Source: Escherichia coli (GTDB taxonomy: Bacteria; Pseudomonadota; Gammaproteobacteria; Enterobacterales; Enterobacteriaceae). From it: a DNA stretch of 64,000 bases. Positions 2,419 through 64,000 of the stretch are shown here, in pieces. Numbering within the stretch: the first letter of the stretch is position 1; each line of letters begins with the position of its first letter. The notes beneath the pieces were generated by a model, which was not told where the DNA came from, ran no database searches, and saw only the letters and a program-made list of their open reading frames with translations. Position numbers and translations under genes: made by a program. The stretch lies in NCBI RefSeq assembly GCF_022846255.1, contig NZ_AP025682.1; one strand, written 5' to 3'.

Positions 2419-3345
2419 ATGAATTATTCTTTAAAGCAATTAAAGGTTTTCGTCACAGTAGCGCAGGAGAAAAGTTTTAGTCGTGCAGGAGAGCGTATCG
2501 GCCTGAGCCAGTCGGCAGTGAGTCACAGTGTGAAGGAGCTGGAAAATCATACTGGTGTTCGCCTGCTGGACAGAACCACGCGTGAAGTGGTGCTTACAGA
2601 TGCAGGGCAGCAGTTGGCTTTGCGTCTTGAGCGACTGCTGGATGAACTTAACAGCACGTTGCGCGATACCGGGCGTATGGGGCAACAACTGAGCGGAAAA
2701 GTTCGGGTCGCTGCCAGCCAGACCATTTCCGCGCATCTTATTCCGCAATGCATTGCTGAAAGCCATCGCCGCTATCCAGATATTCAGTTTGTCCTGCACG
2801 ATCGTCCGCAGCAGTGGGTGATGGAAAGTATTCGCCAGGGAGATGTCGATTTTGGCATCGTCATCGATCCAGGCCCAGTGGGCGATCTGCAATGTGAAGC
2901 GATTCTTTCCGAGCCTTTCTTTCTGCTTTGCCATCGCGATAGCGCTTTGGCCGTGGAAGATTATGTCCCCTGGCAGGCATTACAGGGAGCGAAATTGGTG
3001 TTGCAGGATTACGCGTCAGGCAGCCGACCGCTGATTGACGCAGCGCTGGCGCGCAACGGTATTCAGGCGAATATTGTGCAGGAGATTGGTCATCCGGCGA
3101 CGCTGTTCCCGATGGTAGCCGCAGGCATCGGCATCAGTATTCTTCCCGCACTGGCGCTACCATTGCCTGAAGGTAGCCCACTGGTGGTAAAGCGCATTAC
3201 GCCAGTGGTTGAACGCCAGTTGATGCTGGTGCGCAGGAAGAACCGTTCACTTTCCACCGCCGCTGAAGCGTTATGGGACGTAGTACGAGACCAGGGCAAT
3301 GCGCTAATGGCTGGGCGGGAAGGGGATCCGTTGTATCAGATATAG
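2419..3345 (+). CDS. yfeR: LysR-family transcriptional regulator
   Basis: 308-aa ORF with N-terminal HTH ([38 protein letters not shown]); position matches K-12. Confidence 0.85.
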
Positions 3346-47128: not shown

Positions 47129-47235
47129 TGGAAAAAGAGGAGGCTATAGCAGGTAAAACGGCAGAATCTTAAGTCTGCGTCATCGGCAGCATCGCTCACC
47201 CAGGGAAAGGATGGCGATGCTGCGTTGAAACGTTA

Positions 47236-50136: not shown

Positions 50137-51072
50137 ATGGAACCCCTTCGTGAAATAAGAAATCGACTGCTTAACGGCTGGCAACTATCAAAACTGCATA
50201 CTTTTGAAGTGGCTGCCAGGCATCAGTCCTTCGCTCTCGCGGCAGAGGAATTGTCGCTGAGCCCCAGTGCGGTAAGTCACCGTATCAATCAGCTGGAAGA
50301 AGAATTAGGTATTCAGTTGTTTGTTCGTTCCCATCGCAAAGTGGAATTAACGCACGAGGGGAAACGTGTTTATTGGGCGCTAAAATCGTCGCTGGATACC
50401 CTGAATCAGGAAATTCTGGATATCAAAAATCAGGAGTTATCGGGAACGTTAACGCTGTATTCCCGGCCCTCTATCGCCCAATGCTGGTTGGTGCCCGCAT
50501 TAGGTGACTTTACACGCCGATATCCGTCTATTTCGCTCACCGTGCTCACTGGTAATGACAATGTCAATTTGCAACGTGCCGGAATCGATTTGGCAATCTA
50601 CTTTGATGACGCGCCGTCAGCGCAATTGACTCATCACTTTCTGATGGATGAAGAAATCTTGCCAGTTTGCAGCCCGGAGTACGCTCAAAGACATGATTTA
50701 ACCAACCAGGTAATTAACCTGCGCCACTGTACGTTGCTCCATGACAGACAGGCATGGAGCAACGACTCCGGTACGGATGAATGGCATAGTTGGGCGCAAC
50801 ATTATGCGGTTAATTTGCCGACATCTTCTGGAATTGGCTTTGATCGCTCTGATTTAGCCGTTATCGCCGCGATGAATCATATTGGGGTGGCGATGGGAAG
50901 GAAGCGTCTGGTACAAAAAAGGCTTGCCAGTGGTGAGCTCGTCGCGCCGTTTGGCGATATGACGGTGAAATGCCATCAGCATTATTACATCACCACATTA
51001 CCGGGCAGGCAGTGGCCAAAAATTGAGGCATTTATTACCTGGTTAAGAGAACAGGTAAAAACCACTTCATAA
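50137..51072 (+). CDS. dsdC: LysR-family activator of dsdXA
   Basis: Track ORF 50131..51072 trimmed to Met-3 (311 aa); divergent from dsdX. Confidence 0.88.
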   Translation: MEPLREIRNRLLNGWQLSKLHTFEVAARHQSFALAAEELSLSPSAVSHRINQLEEELGIQLFVRSHRKVELTHEGKRVYWALKSSLDTLNQEILDIKNQELSGTLTLYSRPSIAQCWLVPALGDFTRRYPSISLTVLTGNDNVNLQRAGIDLAIYFDDAPSAQLTHHFLMDEEILPVCSPEYAQRHDLTNQVINLRHCTLLHDRQAWSNDSGTDEWHSWAQHYAVNLPTSSGIGFDRSDLAVIAAMNHIGVAMGRKRLVQKRLASGELVAPFGDMTVKCHQHYYITTLPGRQWPKIEAFITWLREQVKTTS

Positions 51073-51171
51073 TGAATAAGACCACGAGTTCCTGGTGTGC
51101 CTTATTCGGCACTGCTAGTGCGAATTTAATAATTTACGGTTTTTACGTGGTTTTAGGGATAAACACAAGAA

Positions 51172-51186
51172 TGGTGTCCCCTGCAG
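51172..51186 (-). other. attR-type core: 15-nt copy of a tRNA-Arg (argW-type) 3' end (CTGCAGGGGACACCA on the minus strand)
   Basis: Exact match to acceptor-stem 3' strand plus CCA of argW as I recall that sequence; lies at the chromosome/prophage junction. Confidence 0.6.
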
Positions 51187-51259
51187 ACATCTACTTGAGG
51201 CGGCAGGGGATTGATTGGAATGGTGTTTTTTAGATGTGAGAAATATTTTACCCGCTATT

Positions 51260-51460
51260 TTACCCATTGGCGCGGCTTAAGAGCTTATTTTTGAATTCAC
51301 AATGGTCACGATATAACCATCTTGCTCTCCCGTGGATAACTTTGGCTTTTGGCAGGTCGCCGGACTTAATCCGGTCATAGATGAAGGTTTTACCGAAGCC
51401 AGTATCGGCCATGATGAATTTCAAATCAACCAGTGAATCAGGTTGTAGTTCGTGTTGCAT
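51260..51460 (-). CDS. torI: TorI-type excisionase / recombination directionality factor (66 aa)
   Basis: 66-aa ORF MQHELQPDSLVDLKFIMADTGFGKTFIYDRIKSGDLPKAKVIHGRARWLYRDHCEFKNKLLSRANG; matches my recollection of TorI, and is an AlpA/Xis-like winged-helix protein. Confidence 0.8.
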   Translation of the reverse strand: MQHELQPDSLVDLKFIMADTGFGKTFIYDRIKSGDLPKAKVIHGRARWLYRDHCEFKNKLLSRANG

Positions 51461-51478
51461 GAGTGCTATCTCCGAATA

Positions 51479-51494
51479 GGGAATCGAACCTGCA
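51479..51494 (-). other. second tRNA-derived fragment: 16-nt exact match to the argW T-arm (TTGCAGGTTCGATTCC on the minus strand)
   Basis: Exact 16-mer, about 300 bp inside the prophage, immediately upstream of torI. Confidence 0.55.
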
Positions 51495-51504
51495 AATCAG
51501 GCAA

Positions 51505-51525
51505 TAAAAAACCGCATTGATGCGG
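51505..51525 (-). terminator. rho-independent terminator (minus strand) downstream of the 114-aa gene
   Basis: Hairpin ccgcatcaatgcgg followed by a T-run on the minus strand. Confidence 0.5.
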
Positions 51526-51584
51526 CAATGGTAGGTCTGGATATCTTGAGAAATGAACGGGCCTCATCGAGTGTGAGGCTGTGG

Positions 51585-51929
51585 TTAGTCCTTGCGTAAC
51601 TCGCTAATTCTTCTGTAAGTCTCTGGTGCTTTGTTTCCGTGTATCTTCATTTCAGACTTCAACAGAGCAACGAGAGAATCCCATTCGTTGAGGATGCCTT
51701 TGAATGCCGGAACGCGCTTTGCAACCTTGTCGAATGAATCCCTGATTTCTGGAATCTGCTCGACAAGCGCAACGCATCGTCGGAAATCGGCTGCGTCATG
51801 TGGAGCACCGAAGCTATGACCATAGATATTCTTTTTCAGTCCACATGCGATTGAGGCAAGAGTTGCGCTACTGATGCCAACATCGCCAGTCGATTGCCAT
51901 TTCAAAACCTTCATAGCCAAATCTGACAT
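51585..51929 (-). CDS. hypothetical prophage protein (114 aa), no recognisable domain
   Basis: Track ORF; not hydrophobic; I recognise no family. Confidence 0.55.
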   Translation of the reverse strand: MSDLAMKVLKWQSTGDVGISSATLASIACGLKKNIYGHSFGAPHDAADFRRCVALVEQIPEIRDSFDKVAKRVPAFKGILNEWDSLVALLKSEMKIHGNKAPETYRRISELRKD

Positions 51930-51956
51930 TTCTTGTCTCCAATAAAAAAACCGCCA

Positions 51957-52124
51957 TCAGGCGGCTTGGTGTTCTTTCAGTTCTTCAATTCGAATATTGG
52001 TTATGTCTGCATGTGCTATCTGCGCCCATATTATCCAGTGGTCATAGCAGTCGTTGATGTTTTCTGCTTCGATAACCCTGTTGAATGGCTCTCCATTCCA
52101 TTCTCCTGTGACTCGGAAGTGCAT
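51957..52124 (-). CDS. hypothetical small prophage protein (55 aa)
   Basis: Micro-ORF MHFRVTGEWNGEPFNRVIEAENINDCYDHWIIWAQIAHADITNIRIEELKEHQAA whose stop codon sits in a strong terminator hairpin (gccgcctgatggcggc followed by a T-run); absent from the track because it is under 60 aa. Confidence 0.4.
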   Translation of the reverse strand: MHFRVTGEWNGEPFNRVIEAENINDCYDHWIIWAQIAHADITNIRIEELKEHQAA

Positions 52125-52266
52125 TTATCATCTCCATAAAACAAAACTCGCCGTAGCGAGTTCAGATAAAAGAAATCCCCGCGAGGGCGGGGATGTTAAG
52201 TCGGTGGGGGTACAGTATGGATATCGAAAATTATTGCGCGATTCTCATTACTCCCCTGGGAAAACA

Positions 52267-52725
52267 TTATCTGGCAAGCATACGTTGTTGATGCTGTTTC
52301 ACAACACGTAAACGTAAGCTGTCATAGGCCCAATTGTAGAACATGGTATATGGTAGAAAGAAAAGGAAGAATCCTATCTCTAGTGTAAAAGCCTGTAACA
52401 GACTGACGCTCAGAATCCAGGACACCATAATGACGCCGATCGCGATAAATCCACTTTCAAAGCCCAAAGCATGGAATGCACGAACTTTTGCAGTTCGTTT
52501 TACCTGATGAGCAGGCCAGTAGCGATCAAATAGCATGTTATAGATGATATTCCAGATCATTGCAGTTGAAGCCAACAAGATAGTCATCCCGCCCATTTCG
52601 AGTATAGTTCGCTGCATTAACCATGCTGTGGTGGGGGCCAGAATCGCAGTGGCAATTCCTTCAAAGCAAATAGCGTGAAAAATACGCTCAAGTAACGATC
52701 TGTGTTGAATCGCATTATGTTGCAT
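52267..52725 (-). CDS. PACE-family efflux protein (AceI-like; two tandem bacterial-transmembrane-pair repeats)
   Basis: 152 aa, four predicted TM helices, with the signature repeated once per half: ERIFHAICFEG and VRAFHALGFESG (compare AceI RLIHAISYEG / VRILHAIGFEG). Confidence 0.8.
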   Translation of the reverse strand: MQHNAIQHRSLLERIFHAICFEGIATAILAPTTAWLMQRTILEMGGMTILLASTAMIWNIIYNMLFDRYWPAHQVKRTAKVRAFHALGFESGFIAIGVIMVSWILSVSLLQAFTLEIGFFLFFLPYTMFYNWAYDSLRLRVVKQHQQRMLAR

Positions 52726-52828
52726 AACTTACCTTTCTTACAGTTTCGACCGCGTTATGGAGTTGTGAGATTTTTATCGATTTATGTGATATATAAAAGA
52801 TAGATACCATCGAAAAAATTGATAGATT

Positions 52829-53713
52829 ATGCGTTACTCACTTGAAGCGTTAAGTACATTTGTTGAAGTGGTTTCCTGTGGCTCCTTTTCTGCTGCGGCA
52901 CGAAGATTACGTAAAAGTCAGTCCGCAGTCAGTACGTCAATTGCCAATCTTGAGGTCGATCTTGGTATATCATTATTCGATCGCTCTTCGCGAGAACCTG
53001 TGCTGACAGAGGAAGGAAAGAAAGTATTGAGTTACGTTCATGCGATTTTATCAGCCAGTGAACGTCTTGAGGAGGTGGCGGTTTCGCTTGCCGGAGAGAC
53101 TGAAGCTCGTCTGACGTTTGTGCTTTCCGATACCCTACACCCTGACTTATTAGAAGACATCATGGTGCAGTTTGATAGTCAGTTTCCACATACTGAGTTA
53201 GAGGTTTTAATTGGTGAGGATGTCGATGTCATCGATCTTTTGCAAAAAGAACGAGCGCAGATCGGCTTAATTGAGTCTCGGGAACACTACCCCACCGATA
53301 TTGGCTCAACCCGTTTACCGATGCAAGCGTGGATGGGCATTTATGTTTCGGCGTCACATCCACTGTCTGCAGAAAAAACAATCCAGCGGGAACAACTTCA
53401 TTCATGGCGAGAACTTCGTCTTAATACTTATATCGATAACCGGGAGATGATTGCCCGTGGACCGGTTTGGTCTGCACCTAACTATTTGTTGTTACTCAGT
53501 ATGGCCGTACAGGGATTTGGCTGGTGCTCTCTGCCCTGTGCTCTGGTTGAGGAGTTTGCAACAGAAAAACCGCTGGTTCAGCTCGACGTACCTGGCTGGC
53601 CAAAGGCAATTTCTATCGATCTGCTTTGGAATAAAAAATCGCCACCAGGCGCGGCTGGAAATTGGCTTAAGCATCATTTACAGCATATCAATGCCCCAAA
53701 TAGTCGAACTTAG
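52829..53713 (+). CDS. LysR-family transcriptional regulator (AceR-like), divergent from the PACE gene
   Basis: 294-aa ORF with N-terminal LysR HTH (LEALSTFVEVVSCGSFSAAARRLRKSQSAVSTSIANLE); 103-bp divergent intergenic region. Confidence 0.8.
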   Translation: MRYSLEALSTFVEVVSCGSFSAAARRLRKSQSAVSTSIANLEVDLGISLFDRSSREPVLTEEGKKVLSYVHAILSASERLEEVAVSLAGETEARLTFVLSDTLHPDLLEDIMVQFDSQFPHTELEVLIGEDVDVIDLLQKERAQIGLIESREHYPTDIGSTRLPMQAWMGIYVSASHPLSAEKTIQREQLHSWRELRLNTYIDNREMIARGPVWSAPNYLLLLSMAVQGFGWCSLPCALVEEFATEKPLVQLDVPGWPKAISIDLLWNKKSPPGAAGNWLKHHLQHINAPNSRT

Positions 53714-53834
53714 ATTAGTTAAAATATGGAATCCTGAAATAATCTCTGTTGATATGTGGAGCCATCTTCCAGGCTCCCACCTAAATCATGTTAGCAGTTC
53801 CATTTTTTTGATGATTTCCGCATGAGCATCATCG

Positions 53835-53918
53835 TTATCCCCAGCGACAAATTGAATACAAAACCAGTGCTACCGCCATTGCAATTCCTACCGTTGCGAA
53901 TGCTTCAGGCCAGCTCAT
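53835..53918 (-). CDS. hypothetical 27-aa hydrophobic peptide, start overlaps the stop of the upstream gene
   Basis: ATGA overlap with the 214-aa gene; encodes MSWPEAFATVGIAMAVALVLYSICRWG (single predicted TM helix). Confidence 0.25.
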   Translation of the reverse strand: MSWPEAFATVGIAMAVALVLYSICRWG

Positions 53919-54559
53919 TGATTCACCTCCTGCGGCGGTTCTGGTAGTGGTATCCAGAACAAGGCGTTCCCTAACCACGATAAAGTGCCGTCGCTCAACT
54001 CCACGTATTCCCCTTGCACCTGTCCTGCCATATACTCACCGTGCTTTGAATAAATTAAAATCCAATCATCTTGAGCGGGCATTCGCTCACTACAGCTTAT
54101 CCAACCACCCGGAGTTACCGGAGAGTTGCCGCGTTCTTTAATGTGCAAGCGAGGCTCACCATCTTTTGGTTCAGGCCACTGGCGCTCCATGTTGATCTTC
54201 AATTTATCTTCCATAGCAGCGGTAATTTCAGCATCGCTGATGCCAGCACGGCGCTGTGCATCCCACAACAGGAACTGCATATCAGCCCACTCGCTGAGAT
54301 CGTCTGGTTCGGCTGCGGCTTCCAGAGCCTCTTTTGAGAGGTGTTTCAGTGGACCAATGGGGCCAACGCAGCCAAATGTGGAGTCAGACCATTTGGCATG
54401 CTCGTGGCGAATCTGTTCGCGTTCCAGTGAGGCGAGAGCGATTTTAAATGCTGTAAGCATGTGTGCTTGATCGTTGTCGAGTCCGAATGGCATTTCATCT
54501 CGTGCTGACTCAATACTGGTAATCGTATTTTGTAGCCATTCTTTGGTAAAAGTGCTCAT
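53915..54559 (-). CDS. prophage protein with MazG-like nucleotide pyrophosphohydrolase N-terminal domain (DUF550-like) and DUF551-like C-terminal domain
   Basis: 214-aa ORF; N-terminal acidic helices (EALEAAAEPDDLSEWADMQFLLWDAQRR) and C-terminal DUF551-like segment; common in enterobacterial prophages. Confidence 0.55.
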   Translation of the reverse strand: MSTFTKEWLQNTITSIESARDEMPFGLDNDQAHMLTAFKIALASLEREQIRHEHAKWSDSTFGCVGPIGPLKHLSKEALEAAAEPDDLSEWADMQFLLWDAQRRAGISDAEITAAMEDKLKINMERQWPEPKDGEPRLHIKERGNSPVTPGGWISCSERMPAQDDWILIYSKHGEYMAGQVQGEYVELSDGTLSWLGNALFWIPLPEPPQEVNQ

Positions 54560-54927
54560 CGTAAAATATCCTCTATACTGGTAAGTCCTTCATTATTTAG
54601 CCAGATCATGGCGTCATCCGGCAACTTGCTGTCTGGTTTGGCGTTTTTGAGAGAGGAACTCAGTCGCTTAATCCACATTGTCACCTCAGTAATGCGCCTG
54701 TCTTTGCCTTCCAGCTCAACACGCAGCTTCCCTACTGTTAGCGCAATATCCTCGTTCTCCTGGTCGCGGCGTTTGATGTATTGCTGGTTTCTTTCCCGTT
54801 CATCCAGCAGTTCCAGCACAATCGATGGTGTTATCAATTTATGGAAAAGGTCTGCGTCAAATCCCCAGTCGTCATGCATTGCCTGCTCTGCCGCTTCACG
54901 CAGTGCCTGAGAGTTAATTTCGCTCAC
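54556..54927 (-). CDS. Ead/Ea22-like prophage early protein (123 aa)
   Basis: Acidic coiled-coil protein; start overlaps the stop of the upstream zinc-finger gene. Confidence 0.5.
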   Translation of the reverse strand: MSEINSQALREAAEQAMHDDWGFDADLFHKLITPSIVLELLDERERNQQYIKRRDQENEDIALTVGKLRVELEGKDRRITEVTMWIKRLSSSLKNAKPDSKLPDDAMIWLNNEGLTSIEDILR

Positions 54928-55145
54928 TTCGAACCTCTCTGTTTACTGATAAGCTCCAGATCTTCCTGGCAACTTGCACAAGTCCGACAACCCTGAACGG
55001 CCAGGCGTCTTCGCTCATCTATGGGATCGCCACACTCACAACAATGAGTGGCAGATACAGCCTGGTGGTTCAGACGACGCATTTTTATTGCTGTATTGCG
55101 CTGTAATTCTTCGATTTCTGATGCTGAATCAATGATGTCTGCCAT
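54924..55145 (-). CDS. TraR/DksA-family C4 zinc-finger protein (lambda Orf73-like)
   Basis: 73-aa ORF with CxxC-N17-CxxC (CCECG...CRTCASC). Confidence 0.65.
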   Translation of the reverse strand: MADIIDSASEIEELQRNTAIKMRRLNHQAVSATHCCECGDPIDERRRLAVQGCRTCASCQEDLELISKQRGSK

Positions 55146-55243
55146 CTTCCATTAATCCCTGAATTGTTGGTTAATACGCTTGAGGGTGAATGCGAACAAT
55201 AAAAAAGGAGCCTGTAGCTCCCTGATGATTTTGCTTTTCATGT

Positions 55244-55525
55244 TCACCGTTCCTTAAAGACGCCATTTAACATGCCGATCGCCAGGCTTAAATGAGTCGG
55301 TGTGAATCCCATCAGCGTTACCGTTTCGCGGTGCTTCTTCAGTACGCTACGGCAAATGTCATCGACGTTTTTATCCGGAAACTGCTGTCTGGCATTTTTG
55401 ATTTCAGAATTAGCCTGACGGGCAATGCTGCGAAGGGCGTTTTCTTGCTGAGGTGTCATTGAACAAGTCCCATGTCGGCAAGCATAAGCACACAGAATTT
55501 GAAGCCCGCTGCCAGAAAAATGCAT
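55244..55525 (-). CDS. hypothetical lambda-type early-left protein (start may be the internal Met at 55459, giving 71 aa)
   Basis: Track ORF in the block between the TraR-like gene and exo. Confidence 0.4.
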   Translation of the reverse strand: MHFSGSGLQILCAYACRHGTCSMTPQQENALRSIARQANSEIKNARQQFPDKNVDDICRSVLKKHRETVTLMGFTPTHLSLAIGMLNGVFKER

Positions 55526-55535
55526 TCAGTGGTTG

Positions 55536-55727
55536 TCATACCTGGTCTCTCTCATCTGCTTCTGCTTTCGCCACCATCATTTCCAGCTTTTGTGAAAGGG
55601 ATGTGGCTAACGTATGAAATTCTTCGTCTGTTTCTACTGGTATTGGCACAAACCTGACTCCAATTTGAGCAAGGCTATGTGCCATCTCAATACTCGTTCT
55701 TAACTTAACAGGAGATGCTTTGTGCAT
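55536..55727 (-). CDS. hypothetical lambda-type early-left protein (63 aa)
   Basis: Track ORF; position equivalent to lambda orf63. Confidence 0.4.
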   Translation of the reverse strand: MHKASPVKLRTSIEMAHSLAQIGVRFVPIPVETDEEFHTLATSLSQKLEMMVAKAEADERDQV

Positions 55728-55888
55728 ATCGCCTCCCGTTTATTATTTATCTCCTCAGCCAGCCGCTGGGCTTTCAGTGGATTTTGGATAACAGAAAGGC
55801 CGGGAAATACCCAGCCTCGCTTTGTAACGGAGTAGACGAAAGTGATCGCACCTACCCGGATATTATCGTGAGGATGCGTCATCGCCAT
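55700..55888 (-). CDS. hypothetical lambda-type early-left protein (62 aa)
   Basis: Track ORF directly after exo; position equivalent to lambda orf60a. Confidence 0.35.
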
Positions 55889-56559
55889 TGCTCCCCAAAT
55901 ACAAAACCAATTTCAGCCAGTGCCTCGTCCATTTTTTCGATGAACTCCGGCACCATCTCGTCAAAACTCGCCATGTACTTTTCATCCTGCTCAATCACGA
56001 CATAATGCAGGCCTTCACGCTTCATCCGCGGGTCATAGTTAGCAAAGTACCAGGCATCTTTTCGTGTCACCCACATGCTGTACTGCACCTGGGCCATGTA
56101 AGCCGACTTTATGGCCTCGAAACCACCGAGCCGGAATTTCATGAAATCCCGGGAGGTAAACGGGCATTTCAGTTCAAGGCCGTTGCCGTCACTGCATAAA
56201 CCATCGGGAGAGCAGGCGGTGCGCATACTTTCGTCGCGATAGATGATCGGGGATTCATTAACATTCACGCCGGAAGTGAACTCAAAGAGGGCTCTGGCGT
56301 CGTTCTCGTACTGTTTTCCCCAGGCCAGCGCCTTAGCGTTAACTTCCGGAGCCACACCGGTGCAAACCTCGGCAAGCAGGGTGTGGAAGTAGGACATTTT
56401 CATGTCAGGCCATTTCTTTCCGGAGCGGGGTTTTGCTATCACATTGTGAACTTCTGAAGCGGTGATGATGCCGAGCCGTAATTTGTGCCATGCATCATCC
56501 CCCTGTTCGACAGCTCTCACGTCGATCCCGGTACGCTGCAGGATAATGTCCGGTGTCAT
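55879..56559 (-). CDS. exo: lambda-type 5'-3' exonuclease (Red-alpha)
   Basis: 226-aa ORF near-identical to lambda Exo as I recall it ([30 protein letters not shown]...). Confidence 0.93.
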
Positions 56560-57341
56560 GCTGCCACCTTCTGCTCAGTGGCTTTCTGTTTCAGGAATCC
56601 AAGAGCTTTCACTGCTTCGGCCTGTGTCAGTTCTGACGATGCGCGAATGTCGCGGCGAAATATCTGGGAACAGAGCGGCAATAAGTCGTCATCCCATGTT
56701 TTATCCAGGGCAATCAGCAGAGTGTTAATCTCCTGCATGGTTTCATCGTTAACCGGAGTGATGTCGCGTTCCGGCTGACGTTCTGCAGTGTATGCGGTAT
56801 TTTCGACAATGCGCTCGGCTTCATCCTTGTCATAGATACCAGCAAATCCGAAGGCCAGACGGGCACACTGAATCATGGCTTTATGCCGTAACATCCGTTT
56901 GGGATGCGACTGCCACGGTCCGGTGATTTCTCTGCCTTCGCGGGTTTTGAATGGTTCGCGGCGGCATTCATCCATCCACTCGGTAACGCAGATAGGATGA
57001 TTGCGGTCTTTGCGGTAAATCCGGCATGTGCAGGATTCGTTGTCCTGTTCAAAGTCCATGCCGTCAAACTGCTGGTTTTCGTTGATGATGCGGGACCAGC
57101 CATCAACGCCCACCACCGGAACGATGCCGTTCTGCTTATCAGGGAAGGCGTAAATTTCTTTCGTCCACGGATTAAGGCCGTATTGGTTGGCGACGATCAG
57201 CAATGCGATGAACTGCGCATCGCTGGCATCGCCTTTAAATGCTGTCTGGCGAAGAGTGGTGATCAGTTCCTGTGGGTCGACAGAATCCATGCCGACACGT
57301 TCAGCCAGCTTCCCAGCCAGCGTTGCGAGTGCTGTACTCAT
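56556..57341 (-). CDS. bet: lambda-type single-strand annealing protein (Red-beta)
   Basis: 261-aa ORF near-identical to lambda Bet; start overlaps exo. Confidence 0.93.
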
Positions 57342-57346
57342 CCGTT

Positions 57347-57643
57347 TTATACCTCTAAATCAATATCAACCTGGTGGTGAGCAATGGTTTCAACCATGTA
57401 CCGGATGTGTTCTGCCATGCGCTCCTGAAACTCAACATCGTCATCAAACGCACGGGTAATGGCTTTTTTGCTGGCCCCGTGACGTTGCAAATGATCGATG
57501 CAGAGCGATTCAAACAAATGCTGGGGCAGACCCTTTTCCAGGTCGTCTGCCAGTTCTGCCTCTTTCTCTTCACAGGCGATCTGCTGGTAGTGACGCGCCC
57601 AGCTCTGAGCCTCAAGACGATCCTGAATGTAATAAGCGTTCAT
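57347..57643 (-). CDS. gam: RecBCD inhibitor Gam
   Basis: 98-aa ORF near-identical to lambda GamS ([21 protein letters not shown]...). Confidence 0.9.
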
Positions 57644-57718
57644 GGCTGAACTCCTGAAAATGGCTGTGAAAATATCGCCCGCGAAATGCCAGGCTGATTA
57701 GGAAAACAGGAAAGGGGA

Positions 57719-58009
57719 TTAGTGATTCAGGCCGTTACCGCGTCCGTCGAGAAAAACTTCCACGAGCAAATCACGGGTATAAGTGCGCTCGATGCCGCGA
57801 TGCAGATATAGCCGTCCGCGTAAATTAGCTGATGCAGTCCAGGTACCATCTTTGTGTTTGACCAGCATTCCTGGCATGACCGCACCGCGATTAACGGTCT
57901 GCGTTCCGTAATGTTGATGAACCATAAAAACTCCTGCCCGTAAGCTGGGCTGCTGAACATATAGAGACTTCTGCGCGTATTCAGGCGGTGGATGGCCGCC
58001 GGTTGTCAT
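57719..58009 (-). CDS. hypothetical protein (96 aa), first ORF of the leftward early operon
   Basis: Track ORF preceded by a GAGG ribosome-binding site; matches nothing I recognise from lambda (not N, Kil or CIII). Confidence 0.45.
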
Positions 58010-58059
58010 AACTAAGCCGCCTCGTTGAAGCGACTAAGGTATGAAATGTTGAGTTGATT

Positions 58060-58210
58060 TCAGCTGGTCACACCGACGTTCACGCGTCCGTTTCACCCCT
58101 CGCACTCCCCGAAGCCTGCTGAAATTCAAACTGCGGATCTAAGCGGTCATCGCAACGGTGAATCAGGTGGTTGCCGTATCGTTGTGTTGTTGCGATGAAC
58201 TTATTTAAAA
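58060..58210 (-). ncRNA. structured 5' leader of the leftward early transcript (two long inverted repeats); candidate cis-acting regulatory RNA
   Basis: 9-bp perfect inverted repeat CATCGCAAC/GTTGCGATG (58159-58167 / 58200-58208) and 8-bp inverted repeat ATTTCAGC/GCTGAAAT (58068-58075 / 58129-58136), between the predicted pL and the 96-aa ORF. Confidence 0.3.
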
Positions 58211-58213
58211 CTA

Positions 58214-58256
58214 TAGTTGTTTTATCGTCAACAACAAAAGTTGTTTTATTGGTTGT
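58214..58256 (-). promoter_or_regulatory. candidate pL with overlapping operators (-35 TTGACG, 17-bp spacer, -10 TTAAAT; palindromes AACAAC-N4-GTTGTT and TAAAAC-N7-GTTTTA)
   Basis: Minus-strand hexamers at 58237-58242 and 58214-58219; this cassette is almost a copy of the pR cassette at 59252-59287. Confidence 0.5.
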
Positions 58257-58383
58257 TTTAGATATAACTGGTTGTATTTAGGATGGATTTATTTTGTGAC
58301 TTGAATCGCATAGCGATAACTGAAGCGAGGTTATGGTGGTTTTTTTAACGGTGTGTGTGATGAGGGGAGGGCAAAAGAAAACC

Positions 58384-58410
58384 CGGCACGGTGACCGGGA
58401 TTCTTACGCC
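58384..58410 (-). terminator. rho-independent terminator downstream of the repressor gene
   Basis: Minus-strand hairpin cccggtcaccgtgccggg followed by TTTTCTTTT. Confidence 0.6.
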
Positions 58411-58520
58411 GTTAGGTAAAGATATTATTGCGGTGGCTTAATATTACTACCTAGAGCAAAGATAGGAATTAGTTCTTTACTGAATGAGCACAATGCCCAG
58501 TTGATAATTTTTAATTGGTA

Positions 58521-59210
58521 CTACCCATGCTTCCTATATGTCTGCGGCATGCTCCCAATAACCTTACCGAAGATGAACACCCGGTTCATCTCGTCTTTCT
58601 CGATCGGGTCCCACGGTGAGTAGCTTTTGTTATCAGAGATGACCAGCAGCTTATCCTTCATCATTTGCAGGCGCTTTACATGGGCTGTGTCGTCGTACAG
58701 AAACGCATAGATACCATCACCGTCGAAAGATTTAACTGTGATATCAACGAACAGCAGATCACCTGGTTCGATCGTTCCTGACATGCTGTCACCACGCACG
58801 TTAATGATGCGGATATTTTCCGCCTTCCTACCATCGAACATGTGACGAGCATCGTCAAACGAGTACTCAACCGAGCGTAGAACTTCTACAAACTCACGGT
58901 TGATGACTCCCGGCCCAGCACTGACTTCTATATCAAGAACGTCAATCTTAAAGTATTTGGAATGGCTGACAGTTGATAGTATTGGTTGCACTGTACTGTC
59001 TGACATATTTCCAACGCCAGAAGATAACCATTCTGCGCGCACACCCAAAGCGTTCGCGATCTCCACGATTTTAGTTGTTTGATTAGCTTTCCCTGTTTCG
59101 ATTTTCTGAATAGCAGCCTGGCTAACCCCGACCAAATCCCCAAGCGCCTTTTGTGTAAGGCCTCGCGCTAATCTGGCTTCTTTAAGTCTTTCTGAGAGTG
59201 TTGTTTTCAT
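58521..59210 (-). CDS. cI: CI-like prophage repressor (XRE-type HTH plus S24 LexA-like peptidase domain)
   Basis: 229 aa from the Met at 59210 (track ORF extends to 59273); HTH LTQKALGDLVGVSQAAIQKIE; C-terminal GDSM...K autocleavage-type domain; start lacks a Shine-Dalgarno, consistent with a leaderless pRM-type mRNA. Confidence 0.85.
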   Translation of the reverse strand: MKTTLSERLKEARLARGLTQKALGDLVGVSQAAIQKIETGKANQTTKIVEIANALGVRAEWLSSGVGNMSDSTVQPILSTVSHSKYFKIDVLDIEVSAGPGVINREFVEVLRSVEYSFDDARHMFDGRKAENIRIINVRGDSMSGTIEPGDLLFVDITVKSFDGDGIYAFLYDDTAHVKRLQMMKDKLLVISDNKSYSPWDPIEKDEMNRVFIFGKVIGSMPQTYRKHG

Positions 59211-59216
59211 AGTCCA

Positions 59217-59287
59217 AATGTACAACCAAGGTTTTATTCCATCAAACGAAAATGGTTGTTGACTAAAAAACAACCATAGTTTTAATC
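59217..59287. promoter_or_regulatory. cI-cro divergent control region: candidate pRM (minus; -35 TTGATG, -10 TACATT), pR (plus; -35 TTGACT, -10 TTAATC) and operator palindrome ATGGTTGTT-N8-AACAACCAT
   Basis: 26-bp palindrome 59252..59277 overlapping the pR -35; pRM -10 ends 7 bp before the cI ATG. Confidence 0.5.
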
Positions 59288-59315
59288 TTGATTCAAATTA
59301 ACCACGGAGGTTGTT

Positions 59316-59546
59316 ATGAACCCAGCTATCAAAACAGCGATCAATATCGTTGGTTCACAAAAGAAACTGGGCGCTGCTTGCGAAGTTTCACAGCAGGCCG
59401 TCTATAAGTGGCTTCACAACAAAGCAAAGGTATCCCCTGAACATGTCGGCAGCATTGTTACGGCTACTGGTGGAGTAGTGAAGGCATACCAGATTCGCCC
59501 GGATCTTCCGAAGTTGTTTCCACACACCGAAAAGAACGCAGCTTAA
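59316..59546 (+). CDS. cro: Cro-like repressor (76 aa)
   Basis: Small HTH protein divergent from cI with a GGAGG ribosome-binding site. Confidence 0.7.
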   Translation: MNPAIKTAINIVGSQKKLGAACEVSQQAVYKWLHNKAKVSPEHVGSIVTATGGVVKAYQIRPDLPKLFPHTEKNAA

Positions 59547-59615
59547 ATTTCCATTTCACGCTCTTTAACAATAAGCAATCAACTTAACAGTCAATTCAAA
59601 CTAAAGGAGTCAATT

Positions 59616-60155
59616 ATGCAACCACTTACATACCAACAGACTAGCGGATTTAGCCCGACTGCGGTGATAAATCGTTCTCAAACAAAACAGGCGCCAGGCC
59701 ACGAAAAAATCCGTGATGCCGTTCGCGCCTGGTCGGCTGCAGATAATCAGGATGTTGTTGCCGCACTCATTGTGAATGAGTATCGGGAGCAGGGCGGCGG
59801 CACCATCGATTTCCCTGATGATGTCAGCCGTGCACGCCAGAAGCTGTTCCGCTTCCTCGATAACAAATTCGATTCTGAAAAATACCGAAATAACGTGCGT
59901 GAACTGACCCCGGCAATTCTGGCGGTACTACCGCTGGAATATCGCGGCCACCTGGTTGAGCAGGATAGCTTCATGGCTCGGTTGGCTGAAATGGATAAGG
60001 AACTCAGTGAGGCAAAGCAGGCGGTCATTCTCAACGCACCACGCCACCAGAAACTGAAGGAAATGAGTGAAGGTATTGTGTCGATGTTTCGTGTGGACCC
60101 GGATCTGGCTGGTCCATTAATGGCGATGGTTACCACCATGCTGGGGGCAATATGA
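59616..60155 (+). CDS. CII-like phage regulatory protein (CP76-type, 179 aa)
   Basis: Position between cro and O; family assignment is from memory and uncertain. Confidence 0.45.
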   Translation: MQPLTYQQTSGFSPTAVINRSQTKQAPGHEKIRDAVRAWSAADNQDVVAALIVNEYREQGGGTIDFPDDVSRARQKLFRFLDNKFDSEKYRNNVRELTPAILAVLPLEYRGHLVEQDSFMARLAEMDKELSEAKQAVILNAPRHQKLKEMSEGIVSMFRVDPDLAGPLMAMVTTMLGAI

Positions 60156-61171
60156 CAGGTTCAGAAATGGCGAAAGCCGGTCTGCGGGAACAGAGCCGAC
60201 TTTCAGGTGCAAATCGTAACGCACTCATTGCGGAAGGAATTATGGCAAACACTGCTGAGATATTCAATTTTCCAGTGCCGGATGAGGCACAAAAGGAGCC
60301 GCGCGTGGCAGATCTCGATGATGGTTATACGCGCATTGCAAATGAGTTGCTGGAAGCTGTGATGCTGGCCGGATTAACACAGCACCAGCTTCTGGTCTTC
60401 CTGGCTGTCATGCGCAAAACATATGGCTTTAATAAAAAACTGGATTGGGTGAGCAACGAGCAACTGTCCGAATTGACCGGGATATTGCCGCACAAGTGTT
60501 CTGCTGCAAAAAGTGTTCTGGTAAAGCGTGGGATTTTGATTCAGAGCGGGCGGAATATCGGTATTAATAATGTGGTCAGTGAATGGGCAACATTACCCGA
60601 ATCAGGTAAGAAAAATAAAGTTTACCTGAAAGAGGTAAATTTACCTGAATCAGGTAAGAAAAGTTTACCCAAATCAGGTAAAGGCGTTTACCCGAATCAG
60701 GTAAACACAAAAGACAAACTAACAAAAGACAATATAAAACCTTTTTCGTCAGAGAATTCTGGCGAATCCTCTGACCAACCAGAAAACGATCTTCCTGTGG
60801 TGAAACCAGATGCTGCAATTCAGAGCGGCAGCAAGTGGGGGACAGCAGAAGACCTGACCGCCGCAGAGTGGATGTTTGACATGGTGAAGACCATCGCGCC
60901 ATCAGCCAGAAAACCGAATTTTGCAGGGTGGGCTAACGATATCCGCCTGATGCGTGAACGTGACGGACGTAACCACCGCGACATGTGCGTGCTGTTCCGC
61001 TGGGCATGCCAGGACAACTTCTGGTCCGGTAACGTGCTGAGTCCGGCCAAACTCCGCGACAAGTGGACCCAGCTCGAAATCAACCGAAACAAGCAACAGG
61101 CTGGCGTGACAGCCGGCAAACCAAAACTCGACCTGACGAACACTGACTGGATTTACGGGGTGGATTTATGA
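60152..61171 (+). CDS. O: replication initiator O (divergent N-terminal iteron-binding domain, lambda-like C-terminus)
   Basis: 339-aa ORF; C-terminal 120 aa near-identical to lambda O; internal iterons at 60594-60706. Confidence 0.88.
   Translation: MTGSEMAKAGLREQSRLSGANRNALIAEGIMANTAEIFNFPVPDEAQKEPRVADLDDGYTRIANELLEAVMLAGLTQHQLLVFLAVMRKTYGFNKKLDWVSNEQLSELTGILPHKCSAAKSVLVKRGILIQSGRNIGINNVVSEWATLPESGKKNKVYLKEVNLPESGKKSLPKSGKGVYPNQVNTKDKLTKDNIKPFSSENSGESSDQPENDLPVVKPDAAIQSGSKWGTAEDLTAAEWMFDMVKTIAPSARKPNFAGWANDIRLMRERDGRNHRDMCVLFRWACQDNFWSGNVLSPAKLRDKWTQLEINRNKQQAGVTAGKPKLDLTNTDWIYGVDL
60594..60706 (+). repeat. ori iterons inside the O gene (four or five copies of TTACC[CT][GA]AATCAGGTAA[AG] with 23-24 bp periodicity) followed by an A-rich tract
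   Basis: Direct repeats read at 60594, 60621 (degenerate), 60641, 60664 and 60688. Confidence 0.8.
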
Positions 61172-61869
61172 AAAACATCGCCGCACAGATGGTTAACTTT
61201 GACCGTGAGCAGATGCGCCGGATCGCCAACAATATGCCGGAACAGTACGACGAAAAGCCGCACGTACAGCAGGTAGCGCAGATCATCAATGGTGTGTTCA
61301 GCCAGTTACTGGCAACTTTCCCTGCGAGCCTGGCTAACCGGGATCAGAACGAACTGAACGAAATCCGCCGCCAGTGGGTTCTGGCTTTCCGGGAAAACGG
61401 GATCACCACAATGGAACAGGTTAACGCAGGAATGCGCGTAGCCCGTCGGCAGAATCGACCATTCCTGCCATCACCCGGGCAGTTTGTTGCCTGGTGCCGG
61501 GAAGAAACATCCGTTACCGCCGGGCTGCCAAACGCCAGCGAGCTGGTTGATATGGTTTACGAGTATTGCCGGAAGCGTGGCCTGTATCCGGACGCAGAGT
61601 CTTATCCATGGAAATCAAACGCGCACTACTGGCTGGTTACCAACCTGTACCAGAACATGCGGGCCAATGCGCTGACTGACGCGGAATTACGGCGTAAAGC
61701 TGCCGATGAGCTGACCTGTATGACCGCGCGAATTAACCGTGGTGAGGCGATACCTGAACCAGTAAAACAACTTCCTGTCATGGGCGGTAGACCTCTAAAT
61801 CGTGCACAGGCTCTGGCGAAGATCGCAGAAATCAAAGCTAAGTTTGGGCTGAAAGGAGCAAGGGTATGA
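61168..61869 (+). CDS. P: replication protein P (DnaB helicase loader)
   Basis: 233-aa ORF near-identical to lambda P; start overlaps O. Confidence 0.92.
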   Translation: MKNIAAQMVNFDREQMRRIANNMPEQYDEKPHVQQVAQIINGVFSQLLATFPASLANRDQNELNEIRRQWVLAFRENGITTMEQVNAGMRVARRQNRPFLPSPGQFVAWCREETSVTAGLPNASELVDMVYEYCRKRGLYPDAESYPWKSNAHYWLVTNLYQNMRANALTDAELRRKAADELTCMTARINRGEAIPEPVKQLPVMGGRPLNRAQALAKIAEIKAKFGLKGARV

Positions 61870-62168
61870 CGGGCAAAGAGGCAATTATTCATTACCTGGG
61901 GACTCATAAGAACTTCTGTGCGCAGGACGTTGCCGTGGTAACAGGCGCAACCGTAACCAGCATAAATCAGGCTGCGGCTAAAATGGCACGGGCAGGTCTT
62001 CTGGTTATCGAAGGTAAGGTCTGGCGAACGGTGTATTACCGGTTTGCTACCAGGGAAGAACGGGAAGGAAAGATGAGCACGAACCTGATTTTTAAGGAGT
62101 GTCGCCAGAGTGCCGCGATGAAACGGGTATTGAGGGTATATAAAAGAACATCAATGGGTACACAATGA
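61866..62168 (+). CDS. ren: Ren protein (100 aa)
   Basis: Near-identical to lambda Ren (MTGKEAIIHYLGTH...); start overlaps P. Confidence 0.85.
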   Translation: MTGKEAIIHYLGTHKNFCAQDVAVVTGATVTSINQAAAKMARAGLLVIEGKVWRTVYYRFATREEREGKMSTNLIFKECRQSAAMKRVLRVYKRTSMGTQ

Positions 62169-62235
62169 TGAAACAGATGAGTTGAGTTCAAACTGTAGTA
62201 CAATTCTCTCCAGTTTGAACAGGAAAGAATATGCT

Positions 62236-62568
62236 ATGAATCCTTATATTTATCTTGGTGGTGCAATACTTGCAGAGGTCATTGGTACAACCTTAATGAA
62301 GTTTTCAGAAGGTTTTACACGGTTATGGCCATCTGTTGGTACAATTATTTGTTATTGTGCATCATTCTGGTTATTAGCTCAGACGCTGGCTTATATTCCT
62401 ACAGGGATTGCTTATGCTATCTGGTCAGGAGTCGGTATTGTCCTGATTAGCTTACTATCATGGGGATTTTTCGGCCAACGGCTGGACCTGCCAGCTATTA
62501 TAGGCATGATGTTGATTTGTGCCGGTGTGTTGGTTATTAATTTATTTTCACGAAGCACACCACATTAA
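62236..62568 (+). CDS. emrE: SMR-family multidrug efflux protein EmrE (110 aa)
   Basis: MNPYIYLGGAILAEVIGTTLMKFSEGF... with the conserved Glu14; track ORF 62182..62568 trimmed to this Met. Confidence 0.9.
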   Translation: MNPYIYLGGAILAEVIGTTLMKFSEGFTRLWPSVGTIICYCASFWLLAQTLAYIPTGIAYAIWSGVGIVLISLLSWGFFGQRLDLPAIIGMMLICAGVLVINLFSRSTPH

Positions 62569-62601
62569 AAATAATTTCTTTTGAATCGAGTGAAATAGGT
62601 T

Positions 62602-62629
62602 AGCCCGCATAAGTGCGGGCTGCTTTTTA
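62602..62629. terminator. bidirectional rho-independent terminator between emrE and the convergent esterase gene
   Basis: Hairpin agcccgcataagtgcgggct followed by a T-run. Confidence 0.6.
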
Positions 62630-63670
62630 CAGGTCAGCGTTTGTTTTTTGTTGTTGGGTAGCGGTTTTTATGGGGGTTCCCAGGTTTTTAGTAAACCACT
62701 CAACAACTCTGTTTATAATAATTGGCTGATACCATGTATTATCTCCATGCTCAGCCCCTTCTACCAGAACGTACTCAGCGTTATCGCCGTTCTTCTTCAA
62801 CATCCTGAATAGTTTGGCGCTTTGCTCAGGTGAAACCAGAGTGTCTTTGCTACCATGCATAATAAGAAATGGGGGGTTTACTCCTTTCATATGTCCGATT
62901 GGACTGGCGTTTAGCGCTTTTTCTTTTGACGCTGTTATGGGGGCTCCCGCAAAACTTCTGAATGCAGGGCCATTGATCATTAAGGCTTCGGTTACGGCAG
63001 GAGATCGATGAACCTCCTGCACAGATTCAGGGAACCCCTCGCCAATATTCAACAAGTCAGAAATCCCATAAAGTGTGGCAACTGCCTGAACATCTGCTGA
63101 TTGCTGAAGAAAGTCACCTTTATCAAAGGTTTTGTCACCATTTGTAGTTCCCATCATCTGGGCAAGCCATCCACCGGCAGAGTCACCCAGAACTCCGATT
63201 CTTTGAGGATCAATCCCATAATCGCTGGCATGTTCTCTCAAGTAACGTATTGCAGCTTTCCCATCCTCAACTGGTGCTGGAAATGTATCAGGAATTGTTC
63301 TGTATTCTACAGCGGCCACAACAAAACCAGCTTCAGCCAGAGCCATTCTCATTTCAATAAATTTGTCATGTTCAGAAGACATGAATCCGCCGCCGGGATA
63401 ATAAATAATGGCTGGTTTTAAATCATTTGTTCGTGGGACAAGAACTGACATGTGAAGCTGTCTGACAGAACGAGTTCCTTTTATCTGGGAATAAACAACA
63501 TCACCAATGAGATCGACCTGGTTTCTGGTCGGTGAAACACTAATGATATCTGCACCCGGGGTGTAACCAGGAAGATTAGTCTGGACAGGTGTTGCACAAC
63601 TCCCGACCGACATGGCCATTGACATACCATACAATAGTGTTGCAGATGATAATATCTTGTTAATTTTCAT
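62627..63670 (-). CDS. secreted or lipoprotein alpha/beta-hydrolase (esterase/lipase, hormone-sensitive-lipase-like)
   Basis: 347-aa ORF with N-terminal signal peptide ending ...SVGSC, oxyanion-hole motif YYPGGGF and nucleophile elbow GDSAGG; low GC by eye. Confidence 0.75.
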   Translation of the reverse strand: MKINKILSSATLLYGMSMAMSVGSCATPVQTNLPGYTPGADIISVSPTRNQVDLIGDVVYSQIKGTRSVRQLHMSVLVPRTNDLKPAIIYYPGGGFMSSEHDKFIEMRMALAEAGFVVAAVEYRTIPDTFPAPVEDGKAAIRYLREHASDYGIDPQRIGVLGDSAGGWLAQMMGTTNGDKTFDKGDFLQQSADVQAVATLYGISDLLNIGEGFPESVQEVHRSPAVTEALMINGPAFRSFAGAPITASKEKALNASPIGHMKGVNPPFLIMHGSKDTLVSPEQSAKLFRMLKKNGDNAEYVLVEGAEHGDNTWYQPIIINRVVEWFTKNLGTPIKTATQQQKTNADL

Positions 63671-64000
63671 GTTTTACATGCCTTGACTTATCGGATGAAA
63701 TTCTCTTACTGAATTTAACGGCAGTTTAATAGCCGTACAACTCGTGGTAGCTAGGGAAATATCCCAGTCGTGGTTAAGGTTGTACTTGACGGCTATTATT
63801 TCAACAATGCTTAAAGTGAGAGCTTAAGGTTATGCGTATGTTTTACAGTCCGAGTAGATTCTGACCAATAGCTTCTTTGTATGATTCTGTCAGAAATAAA
63901 TCTTGGCTTGCATGAAGTTTGAGACCTTATCTTGTTTGATTATGAATAATCAATTCGCCATAATTGTATCACCGGAGCCTGAACAACTTCGGTGACTTCT

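Follow-up and report, generated by a model that had tools for sequence, protein, structure and literature searches.

In the 64-kb window, i.e., the whole 64,000-nucleotide stretch of Escherichia coli DNA analyzed here, the open reading frame (ORF) listing places an ATG-started frame of 66 aa on the minus strand at 51260..51460, which we identify below as torI. Its left neighbor is the host gene dsdC, which is itself preceded by dsdX and dsdA, and on its other side lies a lambdoid early region transcribed towards it. The features of the locus, with the basis of each assignment in brackets, are as follows:

50137..51072, plus strand: dsdC, a host gene outside the element (ORF; the 311-aa protein is exact in other assemblies)
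51149..51283, minus strand: attR region, equivalent of the 135-bp K-12 attR fragment (132 of 135 positions identical to K-12)
51171..51186, minus strand: 16-nt att core CTGCAGGGGACACCAT, equal to nt 61-75 of argW plus a T (exact match)
51260..51460, minus strand: torI, end gene of the predicted leftward early operon (PDB 1Z4H, PHROG 66, and RefSeq name)
51461..51510, minus strand: torI leader and left edge of the recombination module (invariant among the window, K-12, HK620, phiv205-1, and LR-28)
51511..51526, minus strand: terminator-like hairpin GCCGCATCAATGCGG, then a T run (promoter/terminator scan)
51585..58009, minus strand: lambdoid early-left block, transcribed towards torI (ORFs, Pfam, and PHROG)
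torI-proximal part of 51585..58009, minus strand: orf114 (PHROG 1229), then orf55 (PHROG/Pfam)
between the LysR cargo gene and exo: dATP/dGTP pyrophosphohydrolase, Ea22, TraR/DksA, and small ORFs (Pfam/PHROG)
55879..56559, minus strand: exo (YqaJ exonuclease)
56556..57341, minus strand: bet (RecT/Bet)
57347..57643, minus strand: gam (Gam)
57719..58009, minus strand: kil (Kil)
58521..61869, mixed strands: immunity and replication region (Pfam and PHROG)
58521..59210, minus strand: S24 CI-type repressor (Pfam/PHROG)
59316..59546, plus strand: cro/YdaS-like (Pfam/PHROG)
59616..60155, plus strand: cII-like/YdaT (Pfam/PHROG)
60152..61171, plus strand: O (Phage_rep_O)
61168..61869, plus strand: P (Phage_lambda_P)

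The protein encoded at 51260..51460 is identical at all 66 residues to E. coli K-12 TorI (PDB 1Z4H, "Tor inhibition protein"; E = 6.6e-43), while at the DNA level 5 of 201 nt differ from K-12 torI, each difference being synonymous. An identical protein, WP_001163428.1, carries the name torI in RefSeq, and a PHROG scan assigned the product to PHROG 66, "excisionase and transcriptional regulator". Pfam returned nothing above threshold for this protein (HTH_17 alone, at 16.9 bits against a cut-off of 27) and no match to Exc (PF07825), and the identification is based on the PDB and PHROG matches. The product thereby falls within the TorI family of 66-aa winged helix recombination directionality factors (RDFs), and, judged from its sequence, the ORF is torI, encoding a predicted RDF (excisionase) and TorR inhibitor. 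A disruption of the torI frame had been named in the original prediction as a finding that would speak against it; the frame is undisrupted, and its product is the same as that of the functional homologue.

The core CTGCAGGGGACACCAT, which is the duplicated 16-nt KplE1 core of Panis et al. (PMC2951348), is present as a single exact copy in the window, where the chance expectation is 0.04 at up to 2 mismatches, and lies 73 bp past the torI stop codon, followed by host DNA. Looking up the DsdC protein yielded an empty argW site carrying the same rare DsdC allele in SRR7591054 (locus L018, order dsdC-argW-yfdC), and in an alignment the window and this empty locus are identical through 51186, after which L018 continues into argW and the window into phage DNA. 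This divergence places the host/prophage junction at 51186/51187 and leaves 12,814 bp of prophage in the window, with torI at the dsdC-proximal junction as had been proposed. The 135-bp K-12 fragment to which the attR region corresponds recombined in vitro in excision assays, and the primers that define it are given in section 3.6 of PMC3509656; its identity to the window indicates a conserved arm with predicted IntS arm-type and IHF sites. The final 24 bp of the region (51260..51283) overlap the 3' end of torI. Two small ORFs over the att region (51072..51233, plus strand; 51115..51267, minus strand) were dismissed as mechanical ORFs running across the core and arm.

The exact 311-aa DsdC was seen in other assemblies both beside an empty argW site and beside torI. 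This allele is rare, occurring in 34 index blocks, and the argW site next to it is empty in SRR7591054 and SRR7591053 (L018 10936..11186). One short-read contig, from DRR322657 (L024), has the same allele and matches the window without difference until it breaks off shortly past torI; the run could stem from this strain or from a near relative.

All genes of the early-left block are on the minus strand except one, and every gene in the visible 12.8 kb of prophage is intact and full length. The region has the make-up of a lambdoid early region, i.e., divergent repressor and cro genes, a cII-like gene, O and P, and recombination genes in lambda order, and a ren-like ORF, emrE, and an alpha/beta hydrolase gene come after P. 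The description of the element as a much more complete lambdoid genome is hence true for the visible part, where exo/bet/gam, kil, repressor, cro, cII-like, O, and P are all intact, though a complete lambdoid genome with the torI/intS layout has already been documented before.

Some genes of the prophage are cargo. A PACE/BTP (chlorhexidine-efflux family) transporter gene (52267..52725, minus strand) lies in the early-left operon beside a divergent LysR regulator gene (52829..53713, plus strand); the pair (52267..53713) is bordered by terminator-like hairpins and recurs at 99.5-100% identity in 13 complete E. coli genomes, where it is linked to the torI module or to lambda-type int-xis. In the nin region (62236..63670), the cargo consists of emrE, an SMR multidrug transporter gene (62236..62568, plus strand), and the alpha/beta hydrolase gene of the BD-FAE family (62627..63670, minus strand); in relatives a ybcK serine-recombinase gene adjoins emrE or the hydrolase gene, and the window, to its end at 64000, has no ybcK. 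The ~510 bp from 58010 to 58520, which separate the kil and repressor genes, hold no ORF of at least 40 aa, and relatives at the icd site have two additional ORFs (340 and 168 aa) in this place.

The prophage part of the window was predicted to lack an integrase gene, and all searches agreed. Four recombinases (IntS, a further two tyrosine integrases, and the serine recombinase YbcK) served as tblastn queries against the whole 64 kb and gave nothing better than E = 0.2; Pfam and PHROG scans found no integrase or recombinase domain among the sizeable prophage ORFs, and ARAGORN found no argW in the 64-kb window. An integrase immediately on the torI side, which the original prediction had named as a refuting observation, is absent as well, and that side consists of 51 kb of ordinary chromosome inside the window. 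The RDF gene is thus not adjacent to any integrase homologue in the 64 kb, and an att site stands on its outer side; the lambda-type configuration, in which an Exc-family (PF07825) gene adjoins a tyrosine integrase gene with the att site beyond int, does not occur in the window.

This is the layout of the K-12 element KplE1/CPS-53, as had been suggested: K-12 has the order argW/core-intS ... torI-core-dsdC, with intS and torI on the same strand at opposite ends of the element. In the phage records of HK620 and Sf6, int, the attP core, and the torI homologue (hkaC and gene 18) are contiguous on one strand, and separation of torI from intS has been published for the complete phages HK620, Sf6, and CUS-3 and for prophages of APEC-O1 and UTI89 (PMC2951348, PMC3509656). 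We consider it very probable that the torI of the window is the RDF of a KplE1/HK620-type module, situated beside the attR of an argW-integrated lambdoid prophage that has its intS at the far end. The circular phage would have the order early-left operon, torI, attP, intS on one strand. Because the att site lies between the RDF and integrase genes, integration sends the two genes to opposite prophage ends; recombination at the 16-nt core would keep torI at attR on the dsdC side and move intS to attL at argW. The intS/attL/argW end would then lie beyond the right end of the window, one prophage length away from torI. For annotation, the prophage boundary can be set base-exact at 51186/51187, and the integrase is to be sought beside argW at the other end.

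For KplE1, TorI, IntS, and IHF direct attL x attR recombination, and the need for TorI in IntS-mediated excision is experimental for KplE1 and HK620 substrates (PMC2951348, PMC3509656). There are five cooperative TorI sites on attL (PMC3509656). Transcription of intS starts at a dedicated promoter that overlaps attL and that both IntS and TorI repress (PMC2951348), and expression of intS in KplE1 is constitutive at a low level (PMC2951348, PMC3509656); torI and intS are transcriptionally uncoupled, and expression of the RDF is the excision switch (PMC2951348). From the sequence identity, we infer that TorI would be needed for IntS-mediated excision of the window prophage and that its production would trigger excision, as in KplE1. 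In the window, torI would be the end gene of a leftward early operon starting at the repressor-controlled region near 58.5 kb. Its last place in a repressor-controlled operon, together with the terminator-like hairpins before it (GCCGCATCAATGCGG and a second one at 51561..51579), suggests that torI would be silent in the lysogen and expressed on induction, with read-through of the hairpins being our assumption; an N-type antiterminator gene was not recognized among the prophage ORFs of the window. Two promoters are annotated by the depositors of HK620 and Sf6: pI, a cII-dependent "integration" promoter, precedes torI, and pX, the "excision" promoter, lies in the interval from attP to int.

The module is common. 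A 300-bp torI-attR segment was found in 1404 of 5426 complete E. coli genomes, so that about a quarter of them carry the torI module, and intS-attL was present at a coverage of at least 80% in 1863 of the same genomes. In phages, the torI-attP region recurs in 19 records with 96-99% identity, among them those of HK620, HK633, Sf6, IME10, N7, Kapi1, and phiv205-1. The earlier description of the arrangement as unusual holds relative to lambda only, since it is frequent in E. coli and published for complete phages. A torI gene far from the integrase gene is therefore an already known, common layout, and its finding here is correct but ordinary; studies of KplE1, HK620, and Sf6 from 2001 to 2012 had already described the gene, its att site, how it is parted from intS, and what follows for regulation, leaving low discovery value.

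Relatives of the prophage differ in how much of the element they retain. With megablast, the best coverage of 50900..64000 among the 5426 complete genomes was 69%, and exact-protein look-ups with the LysR cargo protein, the repressor, and the rare DsdC returned relatives only. The E. coli type strain ATCC 11775 has dsdC-torI, a complete P22-like prophage of ~42.7 kb, and intS-argW-yfdC, and phiv205-1 of APEC DE205B is a complete P22-like prophage of ~43 kb with dsdC-torI ... intS-argW and annotated attL and attR. The ends of these two are also found in LR-28, which is a 10.8-kb remnant. In EC42405, a 3-kb remnant retains the torI-orf114-PACE-LysR genes and a truncated intS beside argW, while 24A16CRGN010 has an IS-ridden, degenerate argW island with a different integrase. 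The closest full-length relative of the window prophage is in 2021CK-01784 (NZ_CP104371.1, locus L002). Its end at 2985..3010 of that locus has the lambda att core GCTTTTTTATACTAA beside ybhB, and at its other end (47219..47234) torI and the argW core are joined to unrelated DNA (ompH/upaE); gtrABC is present, and an integrase gene was found at neither end. This arrangement is presumably a rearrangement between a prophage at the lambda attB and one at argW.

Compared with known systems, the window element resembles KplE1 (IntS, TorI, argW) in the identical TorI, the identical core, the dsdC-side position, and the attR region, but KplE1 is a 10.2-kb remnant without repressor or replication genes (also PMC2951348), whereas in the window the lambda-type early, immunity, and replication genes are intact and accompanied by cargo. 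It shares the KplE1 recombination module with the P22-like Lederbergvirus group (HK620, Sf6, CUS-3, Kapi1, HK633, IME10, ATCC 11775, and phiv205-1), including the order torI, attP, int in the phage and dsdC-torI ... intS-argW in lysogens. These HK620-type viruses are complete, functional lambdoid genomes whose early regions are P22-type, with erf or Sak4/abc2 and other immunity and replication genes, whereas the window has lambda Red (exo/bet/gam), Rac/YdaS-YdaT-type immunity, and lambda O/P. Lambda itself (also HK022, 434, and the prophages at icd and torS) is similar in that the RDF gene ends the pL operon, in the terminator hairpin and cII-type TTGC repeat just upstream of the RDF gene, and in the early genes common up to the hairpin. 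The lambda order, however, is xis, int, attP, with the att site beyond int, which leaves the two genes side by side at attL and co-transcribed; lambda Xis is a member of the Pfam Exc family, to which TorI has no match. P2/186 and P4 are unrelated genome types with different RDF proteins. The KplE1 module has been likened to those of P2/186 (int + cox) and P4 (int + vis) (PMC2951348). With regard to lambda, the RDFs also differ in where they act: Xis binds the arm beside its own gene, and the target of TorI is attL, at the opposite end (PMC3509656).

The right end of the prophage lies outside the window, with any late (lysis, head, and tail) genes, intS, and attL expected beyond 64000, and three other readings of the torI end were weighed. 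The prophage might be locked in, with a native torI-attR end whose partner intS was lost or separated by deletion, IS elements, or prophage recombination, such that excision no longer takes place. There are examples of such decay: intS is truncated in EC42405 and in two further loci (L012 and L013), the degenerate argW island of 24A16CRGN010 has a different integrase, and the prophage of 2021CK-01784 combines a lambda att core at one end with the argW core and torI at the other and lacks an integrase. Nevertheless, we regard this as improbable for the window prophage, as every gene in its visible 12.8 kb is intact and, in E. coli, intS-attL is commoner than torI-attR (1863 vs. 1404), not rarer. 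Further, intS is intact beside argW in K-12, LR-28, ATCC 11775, and phiv205-1, which are all of the examined relatives with a dsdC flank and substantial phage content, and on the strength of these relatives the far end of the window prophage is itself likely to be intact.

An excision system of another kind could also stand beyond the window, e.g., a YbcK-type or lambda-type recombinase, in which case torI-attR would be the relic of an earlier KplE1-like resident that recombined with a lambdoid phage. The early region of the window is indeed linked to lambda-type int-xis at icd and torS in other strains, and the ybcK neighbor of emrE or the hydrolase gene in relatives points in the same direction, but neither ybcK nor any integrase sequence is found up to 64000, the prophage joins the host at argW through a precise IntS-type core, and homology with the lambda-type modules breaks off right at the boundary of the torI module, upstream of the gene, as would fit a clean exchange of modules better than a relic; together, these leave such a replacement highly unlikely. 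We give equally little credence to the view that torI is kept less for excision than for host regulation, through inhibition of TorR, the response regulator of torCAD. TorI first became known as a Tor inhibitor (PMC3509656), and the window protein is identical to it, but TorR inhibition and excision are not mutually exclusive, an intact attR is conserved beside torI, and the position of torI at the end of the early operon favors its use as RDF. The KplE1/HK620-type module with intS at the far end hence remains our preferred reading.

What is particular to the window is solely the mosaic combination, and this is typical lambdoid mosaicism. A 47-kb lambda-like siphovirus prophage at icd in SCU-301, whose excisionase and integrase genes adjoin each other, matches the early, immunity, and replication region of the window (54964..64000) at 97.8% identity, and the window repressor is present in many icd-site prophages of canonical layout. 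The orf114-orf55-PACE-LysR-...-exo-bet-gam block occurs with a lambda-type Int and Exc beside torS in VCSW7 (CP082357, L009), and small remnants at argW combine the early-left block with torI and, at their opposite end, a truncated intS. One early region is thus combined with three integration modules (argW/TorI-IntS and the lambda-type modules at icd and torS), with the swap at the hairpin upstream of the RDF gene. In the alignment of the window with the Exc-type VCSW7 locus, homology stops right after GCCGCATCAATGCGG, and from the T run after this hairpin onwards the torI modules of the window, K-12, HK620, phiv205-1, and LR-28 are conserved. The hairpin therefore marks, as far as these alignments indicate, the last sequence common with lambda-type int-xis prophages and the mosaic boundary, and the end of homology on one side and conservation of the module on the other suggest that the recombination module is an exchangeable cassette with its left boundary near 51510. 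At the homologous place in the Sf6 record, Casjens and colleagues annotated a "boundary sequence". Inside the module, the leader at 51461..51510 includes TTGCCTGATTTGC, whose annotated counterpart, at the homologous position of HK620 and Sf6, is a cII-site/pI-type "phage integration" promoter.

The same leader holds a second piece of argW. The 16-mer TTGCAGGTTCGATTCC (51480..51495, minus strand), 19 nt upstream of the torI start codon, equals nt 46-61 of argW. Together with the core (argW nt 61-75) it is contiguous in the tRNA gene, while in the phage the two are 293 bp apart, with torI and the P arm between them. By estimate, ~2e-5 chance matches of a 16-mer would be expected in a region of 600 bp. 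The 16-mer is invariant in the aligned module copies of the window, K-12, HK620, phiv205-1, and LR-28, sits within the torI module, ~15 bp from the mosaic boundary near 51510, and overlaps a TTGC repeat, which is the cII site (pI promoter) in the HK620 annotation of Clark et al. A full-text literature search for the argW-like 16-mer returned only tRNA-probe papers, none of which mention the repeat. TTGCAGGTTCGATTCC may be the fossil of an older, longer block of attP identity; alternatively, it could be a second functional site. It is conceivable, though doubtful, that an integrase-only, P4/island-like module once had an attP with ~31 bp of tRNA identity and that torI and the P arm were inserted into it; if so, the split argW would be a fossil from the origin of the xis-attP-int order.
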